Shown here: positions 8,372 through 42,646 of the stretch, piece after piece
Position numbering within the stretch: the stretch's first letter is position 1
Layout of the letters: every line of letters begins with the position of its first letter
Assembly: GCA_001795615.1 (NCBI GenBank)
Contig: MGKI01000008.1
Location: 1-53,519, forward strand
Direction of reading: 5' to 3'
Origin: Candidatus Yanofskybacteria bacterium RIFCSPLOWO2_01_FULL_42_49
GTDB taxonomy: Bacteria > Patescibacteriota > Minisyncoccia > 2-02-FULL-40-12 > GWA2-44-9
Length of the DNA stretch: 53,519 nt
Translations under genes and position numbers: made by a program
The notes under the pieces: generated by a model
What the model saw: the letters and a program-made list of their open reading frames with translations, nothing else
What the model was told of the DNA's origin: nothing
Databases searched by the model: none

Positions 8372-10204
8372 GTGAAACCAAATAAAATCATCGCCGTATT
8401 TTTCTTAGCTGGAGTCAGTGTGTTGTCTTTTTTTACCGTTAAAGCATTGGCTGATATTTCCGATATCCAATACCCCGTCTCCCAGCTTGGAAATTGCACA
8501 AGTGAAACCGACTGCCGAAGCTATTGCGATAAACCCGAAAACATTACGGCTTGTTTGAATTTTGCCGAACAGAACAATTTGATGTCTAAAGAAGAGATCG
8601 AAATGGCTAAAAAGTTCTCGGCCGTTGGTAATAAAGGCCCCGGCGGATGCACGGGTAAGGATTCTTGTGAAACATATTGCAACGATATTTCTCATATCGA
8701 CGAGTGCGTTTCGTTTGCCGAACAAAACAACTTAATGCCGCCGGACAAATTACGCGAAGCTCAAAAGGTCCGCGATGCTATAAAGCGGGGTGCCAAACCT
8801 CCGGCTTGCGGCAGCAAAAAATCCTGTGACAGTTACTGTGAAGATCCAAGCCACATGGAAGAATGCATTACCTTTGCCTCTGAGGCCGGCCTGATGGAAG
8901 GCAAGGAGAAAGAAGACGCCCAAAAAATGCTATCAGCCATGAAAAAAGGAATTAAACCACCGCCTTGCCGAGGCAAACAGGCTTGCGATGAATATTGCCA
9001 ACAGCCGGACAACATGGAAACATGCATGAATTTTGCAATTGAAGCCGGATTTATGGGCGATAAAGAAAAAGAAGACGCCCAAAAAATGCTATCAGCGATC
9101 AAGAAAGGAGTAAGGCCGCCTAATTGCAGAGGGCGGGAGGAATGCGACAGTTATTGCCAAAGCGATGAACATTTTGAAGAATGCACTAATTTTGCGGAAG
9201 CGGCCGGTTTTATGAATGCCAGTGACGCGGAAATGGCGAGAAAAACAAAAGGCAAGGGCCCCGGCGGATGCAAGGGTAAAGAAGAGTGCGAATCATTTTG
9301 CAATAATCCGTCCAACCAGGAAACGTGTTTTAAGTTCGCTGAAGAGAATGGCATGATACCGGAAGAAGAACTCCAAAAAATGAAAGAGGGGATGAGCCGA
9401 ATGCGCGAAGATGTTGATAAAATTCCGAGTGAAGCAAAAGACTGTCTGAAATCTGCTCTGGGAGAAGAAACGGTTAATAAAATCCGGTCGGGAGAACTTA
9501 CGCCTGGACCTCAACTGGGAAATGCAATTCAAGATTGTTTCCGAAAAATGCCTCAGCAACCGGAAAATATGCGCCTGCCTGCCGGCAGGCAGGGCGGGCA
9601 AGGTGAACAAGAAGGAATGCCGCCACCGGAAGGAAGAGAGTTTCGCGGCGGTCCCGGAGGTTGTTCTACTCCCGAAGAATGTCAAGATTACTGCTCCCAA
9701 AATCCGGAAGCTTGTCAAAATTTTCAAGAACCTGAACATGGACAAAGACCGATGGGTCCACCCGGTCCGGATCAAAATTTCCAACCGCCGAGAGGGCCAA
9801 GAGAAGGGGAAGAACCGCACGAGCCGCCTTTATTTGAACGGCGGATGCCATCTGGTGAACAGATGCCTCCGAAATTTCAGCGGCCAGAACAAGAGATGTA
9901 TAGACCCGGCACTGAGGAAGGATCTTACCCTCCAAGTTATGATGGCCAGCGGCCACCACAAGAATTCAATCAGCCCATGATGCCCAACCAACCGCCGATT
10001 GGAAGTGGGGTAATTCCGCCACCTGAATTTGACCGTCAGGTACCCATGGAACAATTCCAGCCATCCGAACCCATGCCACAGATAGAACAGCAACCGCAAG
10101 GAGAGATAGCGCCACCACCTCCTCCACCGTCAGAGCCGGCGCCTCAATCTCTGTTAAACAACAAATACCTCGGGGCTATTTTCAGACTCCTTTCGGGTAA
10201 CTGA
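8372..10204 (+). CDS. Secreted cysteine-rich tandem-repeat protein with a Pro/Gln/Glu-rich tail
   Basis: 610 aa with a GTG start and a signal/TM segment. About 7 repeats of about 52 aa follow the pattern C-x6-C-x3-C-x9-C-x2-FAE(Q/A)N.LM. The C-terminal 200 aa are P/Q/E-rich. Confidence 0.75.
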   Translation: MKPNKIIAVFFLAGVSVLSFFTVKALADISDIQYPVSQLGNCTSETDCRSYCDKPENITACLNFAEQNNLMSKEEIEMAKKFSAVGNKGPGGCTGKDSCETYCNDISHIDECVSFAEQNNLMPPDKLREAQKVRDAIKRGAKPPACGSKKSCDSYCEDPSHMEECITFASEAGLMEGKEKEDAQKMLSAMKKGIKPPPCRGKQACDEYCQQPDNMETCMNFAIEAGFMGDKEKEDAQKMLSAIKKGVRPPNCRGREECDSYCQSDEHFEECTNFAEAAGFMNASDAEMARKTKGKGPGGCKGKEECESFCNNPSNQETCFKFAEENGMIPEEELQKMKEGMSRMREDVDKIPSEAKDCLKSALGEETVNKIRSGELTPGPQLGNAIQDCFRKMPQQPENMRLPAGRQGGQGEQEGMPPPEGREFRGGPGGCSTPEECQDYCSQNPEACQNFQEPEHGQRPMGPPGPDQNFQPPRGPREGEEPHEPPLFERRMPSGEQMPPKFQRPEQEMYRPGTEEGSYPPSYDGQRPPQEFNQPMMPNQPPIGSGVIPPPEFDRQVPMEQFQPSEPMPQIEQQPQGEIAPPPPPPSEPAPQSLLNNKYLGAIFRLLSGN

Positions 10205-12180: not shown

Positions 12181-12232
12181 GGATATCCCTTTTTTAAAAA
12201 ACCGTTGAGTGGTATACTATCATAAACAAATT

Positions 12233-12385
12233 AAAATCTCTAATCTCGAAACCCTAATCTCTAAATAATATCAAAATTCAAAATTATGTCCCCTTGGGAC
12301 ATCTCCCGAAGGGAGAAAAATTTTAAAACTTTTGAGATTTGACATTTGAGTTTATTTAGAAATTAGAGATTAGAATTTAGAGATT
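12233..12385. repeat. AT-rich palindromic 'word' element, family I copy 1, with two GC mini-hairpins at its centre
   Basis: The left arm aaatctctaatctcgaaaccctaatctctaaa is complementary to the right arm tttagaaattagagattagaatttagagatt. The centre holds atgtccc-ctt-gggacat and ctccc-gaa-gggag. Its arms are almost identical to those of 33314-33435. Confidence 0.85.
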
Positions 12386-12395
12386 ATCGTATAAC

Positions 12396-12650
12396 ATGTT
12401 AATTGAATTTTACGGGAAAGAGTGCGGCCACTGCAAAAAAATGGATCCACTGATAGAGAAACTAGAGAACGAGCTGGGAATTAATGTCCAGCGAATGGAA
12501 ATATGGCATGACGAGAGTAATGAGAAAAAATGGGCGGATGAATCTAGGGGTATTTGTATGGGTGTGCCTTTCTTTGTAAACACCGATACGCAAAAAACCA
12601 TCTGCGGCGAGGCGTCGTACGAGGAACTCAAAGAATGGGCCAGGAAGTAG
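12396..12650 (+). CDS. Small thioredoxin-fold protein (CxxC)
   Basis: 84 aa. Has the CGHC active-site motif at residues 10-13 and a glutaredoxin/thioredoxin-like length. Confidence 0.8.
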   Translation: MLIEFYGKECGHCKKMDPLIEKLENELGINVQRMEIWHDESNEKKWADESRGICMGVPFFVNTDTQKTICGEASYEELKEWARK

Positions 12651-18180: not shown

Positions 18181-18260
18181 TTTTAGGGATTAGGTTTTAG
18201 GGATTAGGTTTTAGGTTTTCATTGACCCTAACACCTAACACCTAAAAGCTAACAACTAAC
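18181..18260 (+). repeat. Intergenic word-repeat hairpin
   Basis: The G/U-rich left arm (ttagggattaggtt x2, ttaggtttt) faces a C/A-rich right arm (ccctaaca cctaaca cctaaaa). Complementarity is imperfect. Confidence 0.7.
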
Positions 18261-18374
18261 ATTAAAGTTCGTGCTTCGGTTAAAAAAATGTGTATTAATT
18301 GTAAGTTAGTAAGGCGAAAAGGTCGCCTCTATTGTTTGTGCAAAAACCCTAAACACAAGCAACGACAAGGATAA
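18261..18374 (+). CDS. rpmJ: Ribosomal protein L36, copy 1 (ATT in the start position)
   Basis: Not in the ORF track because it is under 60 aa. The reading ATT AAA GTT CGT ... gives (I/M)[36 protein letters not shown]. There is no in-frame ATG, GTG or TTG upstream before a stop. Confidence 0.7.
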
Positions 18375-18482: not shown

Positions 18483-18596
18483 ATGAAGGTACGAGCTTCG
18501 GTTAAAAAAATGTGTATTAATTGTAAATTAGTAAGGCGAAAGGGTCGCCTCTATTGTTTGTGTAAAAATCCTAAACACAAGCAACGACAAGGATAA
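18483..18596 (+). CDS. rpmJ: Ribosomal protein L36, copy 2 (ATG start)
   Basis: [37 protein letters not shown]. Has the Zn-ribbon CxxC...CxC...H pattern. Confidence 0.9.
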
Positions 18597-20225: not shown

Positions 20226-20228
20226 AAA

Positions 20229-20299
20229 GTTTCTAGTGTCTAGCTTTTAGTTTCTAGTGATTTCTAAACTAGCCAACTAAAATCTAGCAACTAAAAACC
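20229..20299 (+). repeat. Intergenic word-repeat hairpin
   Basis: gtttctagtgtctagcttttagtttctagtg faces ctagccaactaaaatctagcaactaaaaac. Complementarity is imperfect. Confidence 0.65.
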
Positions 20300-20305
20300 A
20301 AAGTC

Positions 20306-21046: not shown

Positions 21047-21167
21047 CCAATACTCAACATCCAATCAAACTACAAAATATTAAAAAATTAAAAAAAGTTT
21101 AAAGAATTGGTTATTGAGTTATTGATTATTGCCTGCCTGACCTCCGATAGGCGGGCCGGTAGGCAGG
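21047..21167 (+). repeat. Intergenic AT-rich inverted words plus a GC hairpin
   Basis: ccaatactcaacatccaatc faces gaattggttattgagttattg. The GC hairpin cctgcct...aggcagg follows at 21132-21167. Confidence 0.65.
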
Positions 21168-21526: not shown

Positions 21527-21603
21527 TGCGAAACTACGAACAAATTATGCGAACACTACGAACGGTTCGCACAGTTCGCATTTAAGTTCGCGATGTTCGC
21601 ATT
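21525..21603 (+). repeat. Intergenic word-repeat hairpin (gcgaac/gttcgc words)
   Basis: aatgcgaa-acta-cgaac-aaatt-atgcgaac-acta-cgaac folds onto gttcg-caca-gttcgcat-ttaa-gttcg-cgat-gttcgcatt. Paired words alternate with internal loops. Confidence 0.7.
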
Positions 21604-21618
21604 ATATATTTTATAGAT

Positions 21619-21974: not shown

Positions 21975-22520
21975 ATGCCCAAAAAAACGACAGTAAAAAA
22001 AGGGGTTAAAAAGACTCTCAAAAAAGAAGTTCAAGTTAAGGTTGAAACTCTGGTACCGGAGGAGCCGGTAAAACCAGCTACAAGAGAGAAATACTACGAA
22101 GCTAGGGGCGGGAGAAAAGAATCGGTCGCGCGTGTCCGTCTTTATACTAAAAAAGCCACCGATTTGTCTGCGCAGGCAGGTGCCGCTACAACTGAAGAAA
22201 AAGCTCTTATTATCGTTAACGGCAAAGATTACCGCGAGTATTTTACTGATGCTAATCTGTGGGAAGTAGTTGAGTCGCCGTTAAAAAAATTAAAATCCAT
22301 AAATCGGTTTAAGGTTACCGTCGTCGTCCACGGCGGAGGCAAATCAGGCCAGGCCGGTGCTATTAAACATGGCATTGCCCGAACCTTGGTGGAATTTGAC
22401 GCAAATTTTAGAAAAAAACTCAAAAAATCCGGTTACTTAACCCGCGACCCCCGCGCCAAAGAACGCCGCAAGTATGGTCTGAAGAAAGCTCGCAAAGCCC
22501 CAAGATGGGCAAAAAGATAG
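21975..22520 (+). CDS. rpsI: Ribosomal protein S9 with an N-terminal extension
   Basis: GGGKSGQAGAIKHGIARTL and the C-terminus RDPRAKERRKYGLKKARKAPRWAKR. Confidence 0.92.
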   Translation: MPKKTTVKKGVKKTLKKEVQVKVETLVPEEPVKPATREKYYEARGGRKESVARVRLYTKKATDLSAQAGAATTEEKALIIVNGKDYREYFTDANLWEVVESPLKKLKSINRFKVTVVVHGGGKSGQAGAIKHGIARTLVEFDANFRKKLKKSGYLTRDPRAKERRKYGLKKARKAPRWAKR

Positions 22521-24856: not shown

Positions 24857-25112
24857 CGAGGCCATCAGATAATTTTTTACGCCTTACGCTCCATTAACAA
24901 ATCCAGCGATAATTTCTCATTGTTCAGACAAAAATTTAGCATCCGTTCCTCCTTCGGCAAGCTCAGGATTTTCCGGCTAAATTTTATGGAAGATTAGGTA
25001 AAATTAACATATGTTAATTTTACCTAATCTTTGCTTACCTGAACAATTTCTAAATTATCTTGGATTTGTGATAAAGGAGCGTAAACGCTAGAAAAATTAT
25101 CTGATGGCCTCG
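24857..25112. repeat. 256-bp compound inverted repeat (MITE-like or large RNA hairpin)
   Basis: The outer arms 24857-24927 and 25039-25112 begin with a perfect 21-bp match (cgaggccatcagataattttt) and are otherwise about 80% complementary. The centre 24990-25031 is a perfect 42-bp palindrome. A side hairpin spans 24931-24985. Confidence 0.85.
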
Positions 25113-25256: not shown

Positions 25257-25679
25257 TTACGGCTGAAAGAGCCGTGCCACCGTTCTTGATTGAAACTCGA
25301 TCTCATGCACGGAACCGTTGCCGGCGGCTCCGTTGAAGCCAAGCTTGCCGAGAAGATTCTCGATCTCCGGCATATGGCTCACCGCAATGACGGCGGTGAA
25401 GTCCGCGTTATCGACGGCGAATTGCGCCAAACTTGTCGCCGTATTCTCGGATGTCCCGCATCTCAGCCACGACTTGGGCAGAACTTCGCCCAATCCCAAG
25501 GTCTGCCGGATGATCTCCGCGGTCTCAACAGCTCTGGGAAGTTGAGATGTGAGTAGAACGGTCTTGGAAGCGTCAAGCCCCAGTGACTTGAAGAAATCGG
25601 CCGTCCTGGAAATTTGACCTCGTCCGAAATCCATCAGCCCACCCATCGCATCGCCGTGTCGCACTAAAAAGATTCTCAT
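25257..25679 (-). CDS. sixA: Phosphohistidine phosphatase SixA-like (histidine phosphatase superfamily), GC-rich
   Basis: 140 aa. Contains MRIFLVRHGDA (the RHG motif), SQLPRAVETAEI and VSHMPEI. G+C by hand count is 32/60 and 36/60 in 25261-25380, against about 19/60 in neighbouring genes. Confidence 0.8.
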   Translation of the reverse strand: MRIFLVRHGDAMGGLMDFGRGQISRTADFFKSLGLDASKTVLLTSQLPRAVETAEIIRQTLGLGEVLPKSWLRCGTSENTATSLAQFAVDNADFTAVIAVSHMPEIENLLGKLGFNGAAGNGSVHEIEFQSRTVARLFQP

Positions 25680-25727
25680 TTTCCCTGCTCCCTTTTGTAA
25701 AGGTTACCGAAGCCTAACTATGCTTAC

Positions 25728-25756
25728 ATTATAGCAAATTAGAGATACCTTGTCAA
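25728..25756 (-). promoter_or_regulatory. Consensus sigma70-type promoter for sixA
   Basis: The minus strand reads TTGACA-aggtatctctaatttgc(17)-TATAAT. A gggag SD lies before the ATG at 25679. Confidence 0.7.
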
Positions 25757-25790
25757 TATCACCATTTCGCTAAAAAATTGGTATAAATAG

Positions 25791-25910
25791 ATTAGAAAAA
25801 TTAACCTAATTATTCTAATTAATCTAATTATTCTAAACTTTTGAAATTTATAATTTGAGATTCCTGCCTGCCGGCAGGCAGGTGTTTAGAAATTAGAAAT
25901 TAGAAATTTA
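25791..25910. repeat. AT-rich word hairpin with a central 20-bp GC palindrome
   Basis: ctaattattctaattaatctaattattctaaa faces tttagaaattagaaattagaaattt. The centre is cctgcctgccggcaggcagg (25863-25882). Confidence 0.8.
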
Positions 25911-25911
25911 A

Positions 25912-27042
25912 GTGCGTTTAGCACTTGTCCATGATTGGTTAAACACTCTTGGGGGCGCGGAACGCGTTTTAATTGAGTTGCACAAAATTTTCCCCGACGC
26001 TCCGATTTATACGCTTTTTTATAACAAAAAATTCAGGTCCCAGTATTTGCCTAACGCTGACATTAGACCAAGTTTTCTCCAAAAATTTCCTCTGATCACT
26101 AGGCACCATAAACTATTCGCTATCTTGATGCCAAGCGCCATAGAGTCATTTGACCTGTCGGATTTTGATACGGTGATTTCATCATCGGTCTTTTTTTCAA
26201 AAGGCTTAGTATTAAGACCGAAAACAAGACACATCTGCTACTGTTACAGCCCGACTCGTCAGCTTTGGGATTTAAATAAATTAGATACTAAAATTGGAAA
26301 TTTAAACTTGGAAATTGGAACTTCCGTAGCAAAACATTTGCTACGGCTATGGGATCGTCAAGCAGCGGACAGGGTTGATGAATTCGTTGCCATTTCCGAA
26401 ATAGTGCGATCGAGGATACAAAAGTACTATAAACGGGATGCCAAAGTTATTTACCCCCCCATTACCCTAAATCCTAAACTCGAAACTCTAAACTCTAAAC
26501 CCCAGTACCAGGGCAAAGCACGGTACGGGGCACGGCAAACTCAAAACGACTATTACTTAATTGTCTCAAGATTATATCCTCACAAAAATATTGATGTTGC
26601 CGTTGAAGCATTTGCTAAGCTTAATTTACCGCTTATCATAATCGGCGACGGACCAGAATATAAAAATCTCAAATCTCAAATCTCAAATCTCAAATCCATC
26701 ATAATTACGGGTTTTGTGCCTGATGAAAAATTGCCTTTTTACTATCAAAATTGCCGAGCTTTTATAATGCCACAAGAAGAAGACTTCGGCTTAACGCCGC
26801 TTGAGGCAATGTCATTCGGTAAGCCGATTTTAGCTCTGCGCAAAGGCGGAGCGCTTGAGACGATTCGGGAAGGAGTAACCGGAGAATTCTTTGACAACCC
26901 GATACCGGAAGCGCTAGCCGATGGAGTAAGGCGATTGAATGAAAATTATCCTAATTATCGTCCGGAGGTAATTCAATCCCACGCCAAACAATTCTCGGTA
27001 GAAATTTTTAAGAAAAAGATCCTGGAATTAATTTCTGCTTAA
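25912..27042 (+). CDS. Glycosyltransferase family 4 (GT-B)
   Basis: 376 aa with a GTG start. Has the typical GT4 C-terminal half (YLIVSRLYPHKNID..., IIGDGPE, E.FGLTPLEAMSFGKPILA). Contains in-frame word repeats. Confidence 0.85.
   Translation: MRLALVHDWLNTLGGAERVLIELHKIFPDAPIYTLFYNKKFRSQYLPNADIRPSFLQKFPLITRHHKLFAILMPSAIESFDLSDFDTVISSSVFFSKGLVLRPKTRHICYCYSPTRQLWDLNKLDTKIGNLNLEIGTSVAKHLLRLWDRQAADRVDEFVAISEIVRSRIQKYYKRDAKVIYPPITLNPKLETLNSKPQYQGKARYGARQTQNDYYLIVSRLYPHKNIDVAVEAFAKLNLPLIIIGDGPEYKNLKSQISNLKSIIITGFVPDEKLPFYYQNCRAFIMPQEEDFGLTPLEAMSFGKPILALRKGGALETIREGVTGEFFDNPIPEALADGVRRLNENYPNYRPEVIQSHAKQFSVEIFKKKILELISA
26664..26696 (+). repeat. Heptanucleotide tandem repeat (aaatctc) x4.7 inside the GT4 CDS
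   Basis: Units at 26664-70, 71-77, 78-84 and 85-91, plus a partial aaatc. Encodes KNLKSQISNLKS. Confidence 0.95.
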
Positions 27043-28036: not shown

Positions 28037-29212
28037 TTGCTAAAGATCGGAATTGAGTGTGAAAATCTGGAGGACCCCAAGTCGCGTTGGGGGATAGGCA
28101 AGATAACTTTGAATTTGCTCAAAGAATTCGCAAAAAATCCCGAATGGCAGAAGAAATATAAGTTATACTTATACTTCAAAAGTCGTATTCCTAATGATGA
28201 AGTTCTCAAAAGCCCAATATTTGTAAAGAGGGTATCGGGTTTTCCTTCGTTTAATATTTTCTACCACATCTTAATGCCCCTGCGAGCCATGGTAGACAGA
28301 GTGAATTGGATGTTTTTCCCGGCCTATCAGTTGCCGCCGCTATATTTAGGTAAATCTATTGTTGTACTAACAGAAGACGCTTATTACGAATATAAATACG
28401 GCACTTTACCATTTCGTTATAAATTATCCTACAGAATATTTACGAACTGGGCGGCAAAATTTGCGACAAAAATTTTAGCAATTTCCGAGACATCTAAAAA
28501 AGAGTTGGCAAGGATATATAAAATAAATCCGGATAAGATTTTTGTAAATTATTTGGGAATTGATACATTGCCCTTCTTCGCGCAAAGCTTCGAAGGACGA
28601 CAAACACAAGGTAATTACCTTTTGTTTGTCGGGCAGATGTTTCCGCGCCGCCACGCTAAAGAAACCATCCTGGCATTTGAAAAACTCCTTCGACAAAGCT
28701 CAGGACAAGTCCTCACAGAACATTCCAACATTCTGCAGAATGTTGGAATGTCAGAATTAAAATTAATTTTAATCGGACCGGATAAATATCCCGATCTGAT
28801 TATTAACCCGCTTGTGGCACAGGTGAATAAGCAGCTGGGCCGAGAGGCAATCGTACACAAAGATTATGTAAAAGATGAAGAACTTGTCGAATTATATGCT
28901 AGAGCAAGAGCATTGGTCTATGTCTCCGACAGGGAAGCGTTCGGGTTACCGCCAATGGAAGCTTTGTCATTTGGCGTCCCGCCGATTGTGATGGATAATG
29001 AATTGGGCCACGAACTTTTCGAGGACCACGCTTTTTATTCAAAAAGTGGAGAAGTTGACGATATCGCGGATACGATAAAGCAAGCATTAAGTGATGATAA
29101 CCCTTCGGCAGAGCTCAGGGCAAGAATAAAATCCGACGGCTCGGAATTTGTGAAGAAATACAATTGGAAAAGTTTCGCGGATTGTTGGTTCCAAATTATA
29201 AATGAAAAATAA
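28037..29212 (+). CDS. Glycosyltransferase family 4
   Basis: 391 aa with a TTG start. Contains YLLFVGQMFPRRH, LILIGPD and EAFGLPPMEALSFGVPPIV. Confidence 0.85.
   Translation: MLKIGIECENLEDPKSRWGIGKITLNLLKEFAKNPEWQKKYKLYLYFKSRIPNDEVLKSPIFVKRVSGFPSFNIFYHILMPLRAMVDRVNWMFFPAYQLPPLYLGKSIVVLTEDAYYEYKYGTLPFRYKLSYRIFTNWAAKFATKILAISETSKKELARIYKINPDKIFVNYLGIDTLPFFAQSFEGRQTQGNYLLFVGQMFPRRHAKETILAFEKLLRQSSGQVLTEHSNILQNVGMSELKLILIGPDKYPDLIINPLVAQVNKQLGREAIVHKDYVKDEELVELYARARALVYVSDREAFGLPPMEALSFGVPPIVMDNELGHELFEDHAFYSKSGEVDDIADTIKQALSDDNPSAELRARIKSDGSEFVKKYNWKSFADCWFQIINEK
28720..28751. repeat. Perfect 32-bp palindrome inside the GT4 CDS
   Basis: acattccaacattctg|cagaatgttggaatgt. An 18-bp palindrome attaaaatt|aattttaat follows at 28756-28773. 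Confidence 0.95.
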
Positions 29213-32263: not shown

Positions 32264-33315
32264 ATTTTAACTCCCATGATTTTCAAAATAAAAAGAAGCG
32301 AAAATGGGGTCGCTTTTTTTTGCTTGCCGGATTTTTAGCCGTAAGCTATATAATTTTTAACACGGCTCTATTTAATAAAGAATTTGAAATAAAAAACGAA
32401 TTCGCCGAAGAAGATAAGTTTGAAGCGGCCTGGCTCAAGAAATTTGCCGGTTTATTGTTCTTCAATCAAAACCACGCCGAAGAAATAGACAAGAACTACA
32501 TCATGCCAGAAAAAGAGCCAAACCGACTGGACATACTGATCCTCGGCATAAGGGGAGAAGGCGACGAGAACGCTGAAGAAGGCGGAGCATTGCTTACCGA
32601 TACAATGATGGTGTTTAGCCATGACCAACTTACCAAAAAATCTTCTCTAGTTTCAATCCCCCGGGATTTCTATGTCAAAATAGGCTCAAATAAAAATAAA
32701 ATAAACTCCGCTTACGAATACGGACTTCTGAGAAAAGAAGGGGCTGATTACGCAAAGAAATTAGTATCTCAAATAACAGGCGTTTATATAGATAACGCCG
32801 TCGTGGTAGATTTCTCTTCGTTTGAAAAATTAATAGACCAGCTCAGAGGCATAGATATAACTCTGACCAAATCATTCCGCGAAGAAGGCCAGTGGGGATA
32901 TGCTTTTGAACTGCCGGCAGGCGAAAACCACCTGAACGGACAAAATGCTTTGTATTATGTCCGCTCGAGATATTCGTCTAACGATTTTGACCGCGCATTC
33001 AGACAACAGCAGGTATTGTTCGCGATAAAAAACAAAGTAACAACCCTGCATTTGATTTCTGATCCTATAAAAATTCTATCCGTAATTAATACATTAAGCC
33101 AAAACATAAAAACCGACATCAACATCTGGGATGTGAAAGAAATAATTGATCTTGCCAAAGAAGTGGACACCTCGCCGGCCATGTTTAAGAAAGAAGTCTT
33201 GTCAACGGAAAACCTTCTCTACCAGTCAACTGGCCCTCAAGGAGCTTATATTCTATTGCCGCAAGGAGATAGTTTTGACCAAATCAAGCAGTTATTTCAA
33301 GAAATAATAAAATAA
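32251..33315 (+). CDS. LytR-CpsA-Psr (LCP) family protein
   Basis: An N-terminal TM segment, then LILGIRGEG...ALLTDTMMV...SIPRDFYV and Y.RSRY. Confidence 0.85.
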   Translation: MDQLDFNSHDFQNKKKRKWGRFFLLAGFLAVSYIIFNTALFNKEFEIKNEFAEEDKFEAAWLKKFAGLLFFNQNHAEEIDKNYIMPEKEPNRLDILILGIRGEGDENAEEGGALLTDTMMVFSHDQLTKKSSLVSIPRDFYVKIGSNKNKINSAYEYGLLRKEGADYAKKLVSQITGVYIDNAVVVDFSSFEKLIDQLRGIDITLTKSFREEGQWGYAFELPAGENHLNGQNALYYVRSRYSSNDFDRAFRQQQVLFAIKNKVTTLHLISDPIKILSVINTLSQNIKTDINIWDVKEIIDLAKEVDTSPAMFKKEVLSTENLLYQSTGPQGAYILLPQGDSFDQIKQLFQEIIK

Positions 33316-33435
33316 ATCTCTAATCTCAAAACCCTAATCTCTAAACAAATCCAAAAACCCAAATCTCAAAAACGTTTTGAATTTTGATATTTGAGATTAT
33401 TTAGAGATTAGAAATTAGAATTTAGAGATTAGAAT
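33314..33435. repeat. AT-rich palindromic 'word' element, family I copy 2
   Basis: The left arm aaatctctaatctcaaaaccctaatctctaaa is 30/31 identical to 12234-12264. The right arm is ...tttagagattagaaattagaatttagagattagaat. It fills the whole spacer from stop codon to start codon. Confidence 0.9.
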
Positions 33436-33436
33436 A

Positions 33437-34237: not shown

Positions 34238-34343
34238 TATCTAATTACTAATGAAATGTCTAATGCTCAAATGTCCAATTAGAGATTTGAAATTAAACAT
34301 TTAGAATTTTATTAGAAACTAGGAATTAGAAATTAGATATTTT
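34221..34343. repeat. AT-rich palindromic 'word' element, family II copy 1
   Basis: aaatttctaata...ctaattactaatgaaatgtctaat faces ...attagaaactaggaattagaaattagatatt. The left arm begins inside the last codons of the GT2 gene. It shares words with 42513-42630. Confidence 0.8.
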
Positions 34344-34359
34344 GGTTGTATTTTAAGCC

Positions 34360-36137: not shown

Positions 36138-36157
36138 TTCCGCCTTCTTTTCGCTTC

Positions 36158-36306
36158 AGACTCTAGCCATCCTCGACACGCCTCCGGTTCCCCCGCGAGG
36201 GACCTCGGCTACTTTCGCCCAACCTTTTCTCGGGCAGTTAAACGATTATACTGCCCTCGACCGTGCAAAAGGTTGGATCTCTAGTGTCTCGTCATGACTA
36301 GAGTCT
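36158..36306 (+). ncRNA. Structured element 'A' (unknown class), homologous to 46599-46762
   Basis: Closing stem agactctag/ctagagtct, with inner helices cccaacctttt/aaaaggttgg and gggcagt/actgccc. The 118-nt core is about 80-85% identical to the reverse complement of 46621-46738, and differences are concentrated in paired positions. Stops occur in all frames shared by the two copies. Confidence 0.6.
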
Positions 36307-36781
36307 TAAGCTACCTTGCTTGGCGTTCGACAGAAACTTCTCTGAAAACCTGTCACTATTGGAATCCATCGCCAGCTGGCGGACCGGTTAAACCTCGTCC
36401 TCTTCCTCAACTCATCAAGTGATTCGAAGATAATAAGGCCTCGCTTCCTTGATGGCTTAGCTTGTACTTGTTGGCCAGCGAGAAGCCATCCCTATTTGAA
36501 TCACTATGACAAATAGATAGCAGTTGCAGATGAGCGACGCGATTTTTCTGGGAAACCGAGTCGGGGATGTCAGGTTCGGTCGAGCTCAGCTCGATCCGCA
36601 TGGCCTGACAGGGGTGACCCCGAGCGGTCAGAAAAATTAGGAGTGAATCGCAACTGCTCTATGAGGAGTCCGTGATGAAAATGAGGATGGCTTCGAACGA
36701 AAGATGAGGAATCGTGATGAGAAGACGACAAGGTCGAACAAAAATATATATCTTTTACGCTATTCATTGTATAATTAAATC
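36307..36781 (+). other. ORF-free, GC-enriched, highly self-complementary region (candidate ncRNA or long leader)
   Basis: No credible ORF. Hand count in 36541-36600 is 34/60 G+C. Nested long-range helices are agcagttgc/gcaactgct, atttttctg/cagaaaaat, tgtcagg/cctgaca and tcgagc/gctcga. Four tgaGGA/ttaGGA motifs lie in 36638-36712. Confidence 0.5.
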
Positions 36782-42498: not shown

Positions 42499-42512
42499 AT
42501 TACAAGTTTAGC

Positions 42513-42630
42513 AAATTTCTAATTACTAATTCCTAATTTCTAAATATAATGTCTAATCCTTAAATTTCTAAAATTGGTCATTAGAAATTGGGGATTTGAT
42601 TAGAAATTAGATATTAGAAATTAGTAATTC
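42513..42630. repeat. AT-rich palindromic 'word' element, family II copy 2
   Basis: aaatttctaattactaattcctaatttctaaatataatgtctaat faces attagaaattagatattagaaattagtaatt. It shares aaatttctaat, ctaattactaat, atgtctaat and attagaaattagatatt with 34221-34343. Confidence 0.8.
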
Positions 42631-42646
42631 ATCAAATAAACCTTGT

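Follow-up and report, generated by a model that had tools for sequence, protein, structure and literature searches.

A perfect 20-bp palindrome, CCTGCCTGCCGGCAGGCAGG, which we name PAL, occurs twice in a 53.5-kb contig of Candidatus Yanofskybacteria bacterium RIFCSPLOWO2_01_FULL_42_49 (MGKI01000008.1; 53,519 nucleotides, analyzed over its whole length and hereafter called the window), and is found as a sequence-defined insertion across phyla and phage contigs. PAL is tightly coupled to tRNA cassettes that carry a GIY-YIG nuclease gene of the UPF0213 family, in which it interrupts a redundant tRNA copy at structural junctions. It is neither a chance repeat nor a home-grown regulatory hairpin; in our view PAL is probably an ultra-short, sequence-defined palindromic insertion that forms the signature of these cassettes, the window copies being solo insertions of it.

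The two window copies had been singled out in a preliminary description of the contig, where they were attributed to a copied or mobile palindrome rather than to chance. Both are exact matches, and they are the only sites in the window that match PAL with three mismatches or fewer (0.00 expected; none of 100 dinucleotide-preserving shuffles gave a match). They lie where they had been placed, one within the gene of a Cys-rich protein, in the frame R-L-P-A-G-R-Q-G, and the other in an AT-rich spacer element, at the tip of an inverted repeat. The pattern CCTGCCT-N(4-34)-AGGCAGG has three matches in the window, versus 0.00 expected; the third is a hairpin that had been described as related, and it reads as a PAL variant whose loop has taken up a nested insert of 16 nt (Table 1). 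The attribution to a copied palindrome is supported by the genome counts and by the comparison with orthologues, both given below.

PAL across phyla and viral contigs

A scan of one genome per species returned at least 120 PAL loci. The exact 20-mer is present in at least 120 genomes, the 120 loci listed coming from 120 different assemblies, and in 35 viral contigs of IMG/VR. As controls we employed three palindromes with the same half-site composition as PAL, which gave 0, 1 and 0 matches in the viral contigs; one of them, (CCGT)n, is as repetitive as PAL and gave none. The counts far exceed what composition accounts for. Among the matches listed, PAL is present in Patescibacteria of many classes, including another member of Yanofskybacteria, and in Bacteroidota, where it occurs in at least seven cultured isolates (Winogradskyella echinorum KCTC 22026, Flagellimonas yonaguniensis, Longitalea luteola, Flavivirga sp., Aquiflexum lacus, Agriterribacter humi YJ03 and Aestuariivivens sediminis). 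The same matches also include Omnitrophota, Planctomycetota, Thermodesulfovibrionales, Chloroflexi, Elusimicrobia, Verrucomicrobia and Ignavibacteria, as well as delta- and gammaproteobacterial metagenome-assembled genomes (MAGs).

When the four central bases were left free, just 12 loci were added to the 35, and the PAL variants in the fetched loci carry mostly single changes, which break base pairing rather than compensate for it. The fixed CCGG centre and the uncompensated variants indicate that what is conserved is a stretch of DNA, centre included, rather than an RNA stem alone.

At least 57% of the classifiable PAL sites are intergenic, with 14 in head-to-head and 9 in tail-to-tail contexts, and the immediate flanks show a preference for A at position -1 and T at position +1 only. 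Inverted or direct repeats of 7 nt or more flank PAL about five times as often as they flank random positions of the same loci. The 5-fold excess of inverted repeats holds for solo sites, some of which lie at palindrome centres or loop edges (for example in L079, L019, L067 and L084). The 7-nt direct flanks of a few loci derive from tandem heptamer arrays. PAL was also observed nested within PAL, in L018, L042 and L189.

Several other repeats accompany PAL. Similar heptamer arrays lie beside it in other phyla (L045, L082, L101, L125, L133 and L143), and other perfect GC-rich palindromes, GGGACAGGTCGCGACCTGTCCC, (T)CCGCCAGCTGGCGG(A) and TCCCGATAGCTATCGGGA, recur across phyla in genomic and viral PAL loci (L259-L265). 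The palindrome GGACAGGTCGCGACCTGTCC gave 7 viral-contig matches, versus 0-1 for controls. At the end of one viral contig (L158, 3916-4142), at least 10 tandem copies of a 21-bp unit consist of a two-mismatch PAL variant, CATGCCTACCGGCAGGCAGG, followed by C.

Cassettes of a GIY-YIG nuclease and a tRNA

All open reading frames (ORFs) within 1 kb of PAL in 155 loci were compared against each other, and the sole recurrent family was a small GIY-YIG protein, with a start codon 15-40 bp away from PAL. In the reverse test, 80 metagenome loci were fetched by similarity to the GIY-YIG protein alone, at least 548 of 600 candidate stretches being confirmed relatives. PAL, with up to three mismatches, lay within 130 bp upstream of the GIY-YIG ORF in 52 of these 80 loci, and the exact 20-mer was present in 44 of them.

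The usual cassette consists of a 5' tRNA fragment carrying PAL, an ORF of approximately 230 nt, and an intact copy of the same tRNA that begins 0-25 nt past the stop codon. A mirror arrangement also exists, in which the intact tRNA precedes the ORF and a 3' fragment or a second full tRNA copy carries PAL, some cassettes being flanked by PAL at both ends or duplicated in tandem. One cassette lies in the WWE3 genome MEWB01000001 (L037). The tRNAs involved cover 10 amino-acid identities (Leu, Arg, Lys, Phe, Asn, Met, Val, Gln, Thr and Gly), with five anticodons each for Leu and Arg. Comparison with the intact tRNA copy of the same locus shows PAL as a clean 20-bp insertion, with neither duplication nor deletion, in 45 of the 46 cases mapped. 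The insertion points lie at nt 9-10, 14-15, 20-24, 31-32, 39 or 64 of the tRNA gene, which we interpret as the places where the stems of the D, anticodon and T arms meet their loops. Read along the sense strand of the tRNA, the flank to the left of PAL almost always ends in A.

The cassette protein matches the Pfam GIY-YIG family over a length of only 80-95 residues. Its closest solved structures are those of the UPF0213 proteins EF2693 and BH0048 (PDB 1ywl and 1zg2; E of approximately 1e-13), followed by SLX1. Five residues (Y, Y, R, H and E) are invariant in the alignment of the cassette nucleases, and they fit the GIY-YIG catalytic set. NCBIfam holds no model for this nuclease, PHROGs gave only weak matches to 'endonuclease' and 'homing endonuclease', and collections of cultured phages and plasmids contained only distant GIY-YIG relatives. 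The 41 cassettes with an exact upstream PAL are scattered over the entire nuclease protein tree; their proteins share a median of 52% identity in pairwise comparisons (minimum 38%), yet the palindrome is conserved at 20 of 20 positions. Such divergence of the proteins beside an unchanged palindrome points either to a very strict constraint on the DNA or to continual re-insertion from a conserved source.

A number of loci depart from these layouts. Full-length tRNA genes can carry a PAL-type hairpin (L149, 2239-2330; L200, L232 and L235): a phage tRNA-fMet has PAL in its variable loop and is called by ARAGORN as a 92-nt tRNA, a tRNA-Arg(TCT) has the hairpin past the anticodon loop, and tRNA-Gly copies have it in the T loop or past the D stem. 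In a viral contig (L156, 820-900), the GIY-YIG ORF is followed by a tRNA copy that itself seems to be interrupted, past the anticodon stem, by a structured insert, which could be a group I intron. In L060 (3780-4250), PAL and then a GIY-YIG domain are found in one long ORF with a gene resembling those for type I restriction specificity subunits (HsdS), between two copies of the conserved HsdS repeat ELLKEIEAEKQ. The hairpins associated with the cassette nucleases include PAL and CCCGCCCG types. A cassette-like layout was also seen in an Ignavibacteria MAG (L086, 3950-5200), where an alpha/beta-hydrolase-like gene has on each side one copy of a longer repeat, ..attattggcagttgtt-CCTGCCTACCGGCAGGCAGG-ttttaagtg.., and is followed downstream by three different GC palindromes in a row.

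The window copies and their surroundings

Copy 1 is a lineage-specific addition to its host gene. In a DNA alignment with the orthologues L160 and L161, the window carries 30 extra nucleotides that keep the reading frame, and in the protein alignment the nearest relatives have a 10-residue gap at the position of LPAGRQ. Among the 120 homologues listed, these residues occur in the window's own protein only, and in none of the 119 others; orthologues devoid of them are what a copied palindrome had been predicted to show. The closest partial homologue, P0013, is missing the entire segment and is uninformative. Deletion of PAL alone, as read from the sequence, would cause a frameshift into a stop codon; the coding copy is probably tolerated because the approximately 10 nt that accompany it preserve the frame. 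The Cys-rich protein matches no Pfam family, and its homologues are widespread across Patescibacteria. The site of copy 1 is a disordered, low-complexity linker of this probably secreted protein.

Copy 2 lies in a 232-bp spacer whose region folds with an energy of -21.6 kcal/mol (z = -4.15). Upstream of the AT-rich inverted repeat that carries PAL at its tip, a block ttgtca..taaaaa..tataaat looks like the promoter of a glycosyltransferase operon, and the inverted repeat is probably the 5' leader of that operon. Five independent assemblies, made from different samples (L121-L124 and L255), have the same PAL-bearing spacer letter for letter, which rules out an assembly artefact. In three relatives whose glycosyltransferase is 75-77% identical (L256-L258), the promoter-like block is kept and PAL is absent from the equivalent spacer, which contains an analogous AT-rich inverted repeat built from different units.

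The third copy is a common one-mismatch PAL variant, CCTGCCTGCCGGTAGGCAGG, with a 16-nt hairpin, ACCTCCGATAGGCGGG, nested in its loop, and it ends 11 nt before the start codon of rplQ. The same one-mismatch variant and similar nested forms were found in other loci (L038, L231, L252, L189, L199 and L206), and nested forms also in other genomes.

Table 1. PAL copies in the window and the features around them
Feature	Position	Strand	Description
PAL copy 1	9574..9593	none	Perfect palindrome CCTGCCTGCCGGCAGGCAGG in a coding frame, read L-P-A-G-R-Q
In-frame insertion	9573..9602	+	30 nt, PAL plus ~10 nt; boundaries uncertain by ~3 nt; low-complexity linker
Host gene of copy 1	8372..10204	+	610-aa protein with hydrophobic N-terminus, Cys-rich repeats and Pro-rich tail
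PAL copy 2	25863..25882	none	Same 20-mer, in the spacer of two divergent genes
AT-rich imperfect inverted repeat	25805..25909	none	ttagaaa/ttctaat heptamer-like units; PAL at the tip
His_Phos_1/SixA-like gene	25257..25679	-	One flank of the copy 2 spacer
GT4 glycosyltransferase gene	25912..27042	+	Other flank of the copy 2 spacer
Degenerate third PAL copy	21132..21167	none	rpoA-rplQ spacer; CCTGCCTG + ACCTCCGATAGGCGGG + CCGGTAGGCAGG

Two shorter sequences that the preliminary description had counted as relatives of PAL are present as reported, and their kinship to it was rejected. The first, CTGCCGGCAG(GC) at 32911-32922 in the LCP gene, had suggested a decayed PAL read as LPAG; this peptide belongs to a conserved, indel-free motif, F-x-LPAG-x-NHL, among the 120 homologues listed, and the 12-nt DNA match, unusual as it is by composition, is accounted for by the conserved peptide. 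The second, ctgcgcaggcagg at 22168-22180 in rpsI, rests on an 8-mer for which approximately 1-2 chance occurrences are estimated in a window of such size. The genome had moreover been called AT-rich, which is only moderately true, given a GC content of 38-46%.

Other repeats in the window were observed alongside PAL. Long imperfect inverted-repeat spacers lie at 12181-12410, 18190-18270, 20226-20305, 21527-21618, 33316-33436, 34238-34359 and 42499-42646; they consist of degenerate heptamer-like, stop-codon-rich units (ttagaaa, ttagaga, ttaggga, ctagtgt and gcgaaca), and the tip of some is formed by a small GC hairpin. The spacer between mreB and the SixA-like gene contains an AT-rich palindrome of 42 bp that is perfect (24990-25031), and a perfect 32-bp palindrome (28720-28751) lies within a glycosyltransferase gene (28037..29212). 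The GC-richer 640-bp segment at 36138-36781 has no ORF of 80 or more residues and matched nothing in Rfam, even when the threshold was permissive. Within it lies CGCCAGCTGGCG, which forms the core of a further palindrome seen repeatedly in PAL-bearing loci from other phyla. The gene for ribosomal protein L36, rpmJ, is present as a tandem pair (18261-18374 and 18483-18596) with an inverted repeat between the copies; the two proteins are identical from MCINCK onward, and the first copy has no ATG at the usual start.

Origin of PAL and relation to known systems

A mechanism can be proposed by which PAL may enter DNA. Single-stranded DNA folding as hairpins or as a cloverleaf would expose stem-loop junctions, at which a structure-specific GIY-YIG nuclease of the cassette family, acting in trans, could cut; the self-complementary 20-mer would then be ligated or copied into the cut without target duplication. 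PAL would thereby enter hairpin-forming DNA while it is single-stranded. On this model the nuclease family would make the target cuts or recognize PAL, and the solo copies would be made in trans. Those of the window are probably neutral or selfish passengers, which at most would add a stable GC hairpin to an mRNA leader.

Several observations weigh against this proposal. The window harbours exact and near-exact PAL, and no GIY-YIG ORF was found in its 53.5 kb, nor any tRNA-like flank at either of its two perfect copies, which is why we class them as orphan ('solo') sites and not as cassettes; the adjacent nuclease ORF and the duplicated tRNA segment of a cassette are both absent. Such solo sites make up approximately 90% of the PAL sites in the fetched loci, and a GIY-YIG ORF lies within 8 kb in just 10 of approximately 155 PAL loci, so that action in trans is an assumption. 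When flanks were folded with PAL removed, 27% of solo sites fell in hairpin loops, compared to 20% of shifted controls, a weak difference. The copy number per genome is very low, mostly one site per assembly, which is odd for an actively transposing element. GIY-YIG enzymes hydrolyze DNA and do not carry out strand transfer, and a ligase or polymerase step must therefore be postulated. Finally, the coding copy, with its approximately 10 extra nucleotides and G on both sides, breaks both the rule of clean insertion and that of an A preceding PAL, and no base-exact empty site was obtained for copy 2, L255 being filled identically and the next relatives being too diverged.

The main rival to a nuclease-linked insertion is spread without a dedicated enzyme, in which the self-complementary 20-mer, or a templated copy of it, is captured at breaks, or at forks stalled on hairpins, by ordinary repair (end joining, template switching or gene conversion). 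Its presence in cassettes would then reflect selection only, either because the hairpin blocks the direct-repeat recombination that deletes the nuclease gene or because it prevents toxic folding of the pseudo-tRNA. Most PAL copies do lack a nearby nuclease gene, and one viral contig has six copies and no GIY-YIG ORF in the approximately 95% of it that was examined; GC hairpins of other sequence occupy the same or other pseudo-tRNA loops (L219, L244, L190, L209 and L239), and clean insertions devoid of target duplication are what capture of blunt DNA should give. We nonetheless judge this explanation unlikely, since it does not account for the preservation of one 20-mer, centre included, at 20 of 20 positions across phyla and across proteins that are 38-52% identical, nor for the association in 52 of 80 loci, nor for the regularity with which PAL follows an A and sits at a stem-loop junction. 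A miniature inverted-repeat transposable element was also rejected, as no target-site duplication of fixed length was seen: 45 of 46 insertions are clean, and 70 of 123 solo sites have no direct repeat of any kind.

Less likely than repair capture are a function for the host and chance or artefact. PAL could be a beneficial hairpin acting in cis, as an mRNA stabilizer, an RNase processing site, an attenuator or terminator, or the binding site of a conserved dimeric protein, and the window copies would then influence the leader of the glycosyltransferase operon and the expression of rplQ. The conserved promoter-like block upstream of copy 2, the very stable fold of its spacer (z = -4.15), the proximity of the third copy to the rplQ start codon (11 nt), where its 3' arm, AGGCAGGA, resembles a ribosome-binding site, and the mostly intergenic location of PAL sites all agree with such a role. 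We consider it distinctly improbable, however: an RNA hairpin needs no self-complementary loop, yet CCGG is strongly fixed and variants are uncompensated, and the same two features weaken any reading of PAL as an RNA hairpin only. Relatives run the same operon from a spacer that lacks PAL, one copy is a lineage-specific insertion in a coding region, and Rfam has no matching family, the search having returned only tRNAs in the window and in five cassette loci and nothing significant at 25600-26000. An intrinsic terminator in particular was rejected, given that PAL is followed by tgtttag or gcgggca rather than by a T-run, that the copy 2 spacer separates divergent genes, and that no orientation bias exists overall. 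A coincidental or artefactual origin, through slippage of a low-complexity (CCTG)n/(CAGG)n palindrome or through errors of sequencing or assembly, finds some echo in the half-site, which amounts to 2.5 CCTG units, and in the tandem and nested forms (the 21-bp array of L158; L018 and L042). It is effectively refuted: no shuffle reproduces PAL, the (CCGT)n control has 0 viral matches versus 35, the window loci are the same in five independent assemblies from different samples, PAL is present in cultured isolates, the coding copy is frame-compensated, and the flanks in cassettes form continuous tRNA sequence and not chimeric joins.

A bolder version of the nuclease-linked insertion, which we put forward as a doubtful idea, is that PAL is the smallest mobile DNA yet seen, a 20-nt hairpin 'micro-transposon' that a structure-specific, SLX1-like GIY-YIG nuclease excises from stem-loop junctions of single-stranded DNA and admits into them. 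Transfer RNA genes would be its favoured landing pads because they fold as cloverleaves, and it would have spread across phyla and phages because its targets are universal. PAL may belong to a wider class of hairpin insertions, since GGACAGGTCGCGACCTGTCC, CCGCCAGCTGGCGG and CCCGATAGCTATCGGG behave in a similar way. In Patescibacteria and Bacteroidota, this class could contribute to the form of spacers that abound in heptamer repeats and hairpins.

If the link between PAL and the nuclease holds, a palindrome that is letter-perfect from Patescibacteria to Flavobacteria to phages, together with a nuclease reduced to its catalytic domain, would represent a new and extremely compact selfish system, and the uncharacterized UPF0213 family would gain its first biological context. 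It would also explain oddities of metagenome annotation, such as pseudo-tRNA fragments, tRNAs with 20-nt 'introns' and the spurious peptides PACRQAG and LPAGRQ, and would imply that such insertions reach protein-coding genes. A nuclease with a 20-bp or structure-defined target, and its cognate site, could be tested in the cultured Bacteroidota that bear PAL.

The palindrome-nuclease-tRNA system is apparently undescribed. In the literature searched, no paper contained the 20-mer, the three other palindromes or such cassettes, nothing relevant emerged on GC clusters, on GIY-YIG proteins in combination with tRNAs and palindromes, or on UPF0213/YhbQ, and no function or mobile context was reported for bacterial UPF0213 proteins. 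A study of TAACTGA heptamer repeats (PMC4679880) concerns spacer repeats and not PAL.

Of the known elements, PAL behaves most like repetitive extragenic palindromic (REP) sequences and their REPIN forms with RAYT genes, yet it fails every defining feature tested. The two share short (20-40 bp), GC-rich extragenic palindromes, dispersed non-autonomous copies, a presumed mobilizing enzyme gene flanked by the palindrome, and insertion without target duplication. REP and REPIN sequences are defined by a conserved tetranucleotide, GTAG or CGTC, with which the palindrome is capped at one end (PMC3733652). PAL has no such head, is present in one to few copies per genome rather than in tens to hundreds, and is identical across phyla, whereas REP sequences are species-specific; its gene encodes a GIY-YIG nuclease and not an HUH Y1 transposase as in RAYT, and its cassettes are located in tRNA-gene duplications.

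Yeast mitochondrial DNA has mobile GC clusters, and fungal mitochondria have PstI palindromes and double-hairpin elements; these are likewise small GC palindromes in AT spacers that occasionally lie in frame in genes (var1), and they show presence/absence polymorphism. They are organellar and 30-50 bp long, fall into several sequence classes and generate an AG/TAG target duplication, and they are not known to have a linked nuclease gene or a tRNA-copy architecture. PAL resembles them in behaviour only, its bacterial setting and lack of target duplication arguing against membership. Rickettsia palindromic elements also insert in frame in genes, but they measure 100-150 bp, are confined to one genus and reach a high copy number, with no associated nuclease to our knowledge.

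Free-standing GIY-YIG homing endonuclease genes (phage T4 Seg/Mob, I-TevI-like) similarly form small selfish cassettes beside or in conserved genes, including on phage contigs. The PAL cassettes differ from them in that they duplicate a tRNA segment and carry an invariant palindrome, and in that their proteins are UPF0213/SLX1-like catalytic domains, whose length of 80-95 residues leaves no room for a separate DNA-binding domain. SLX1 itself cleaves branched and stem-loop DNA where a single strand passes into duplex. The cassette nuclease is its relative by sequence, and the cut sites of SLX1 would match the location of PAL.

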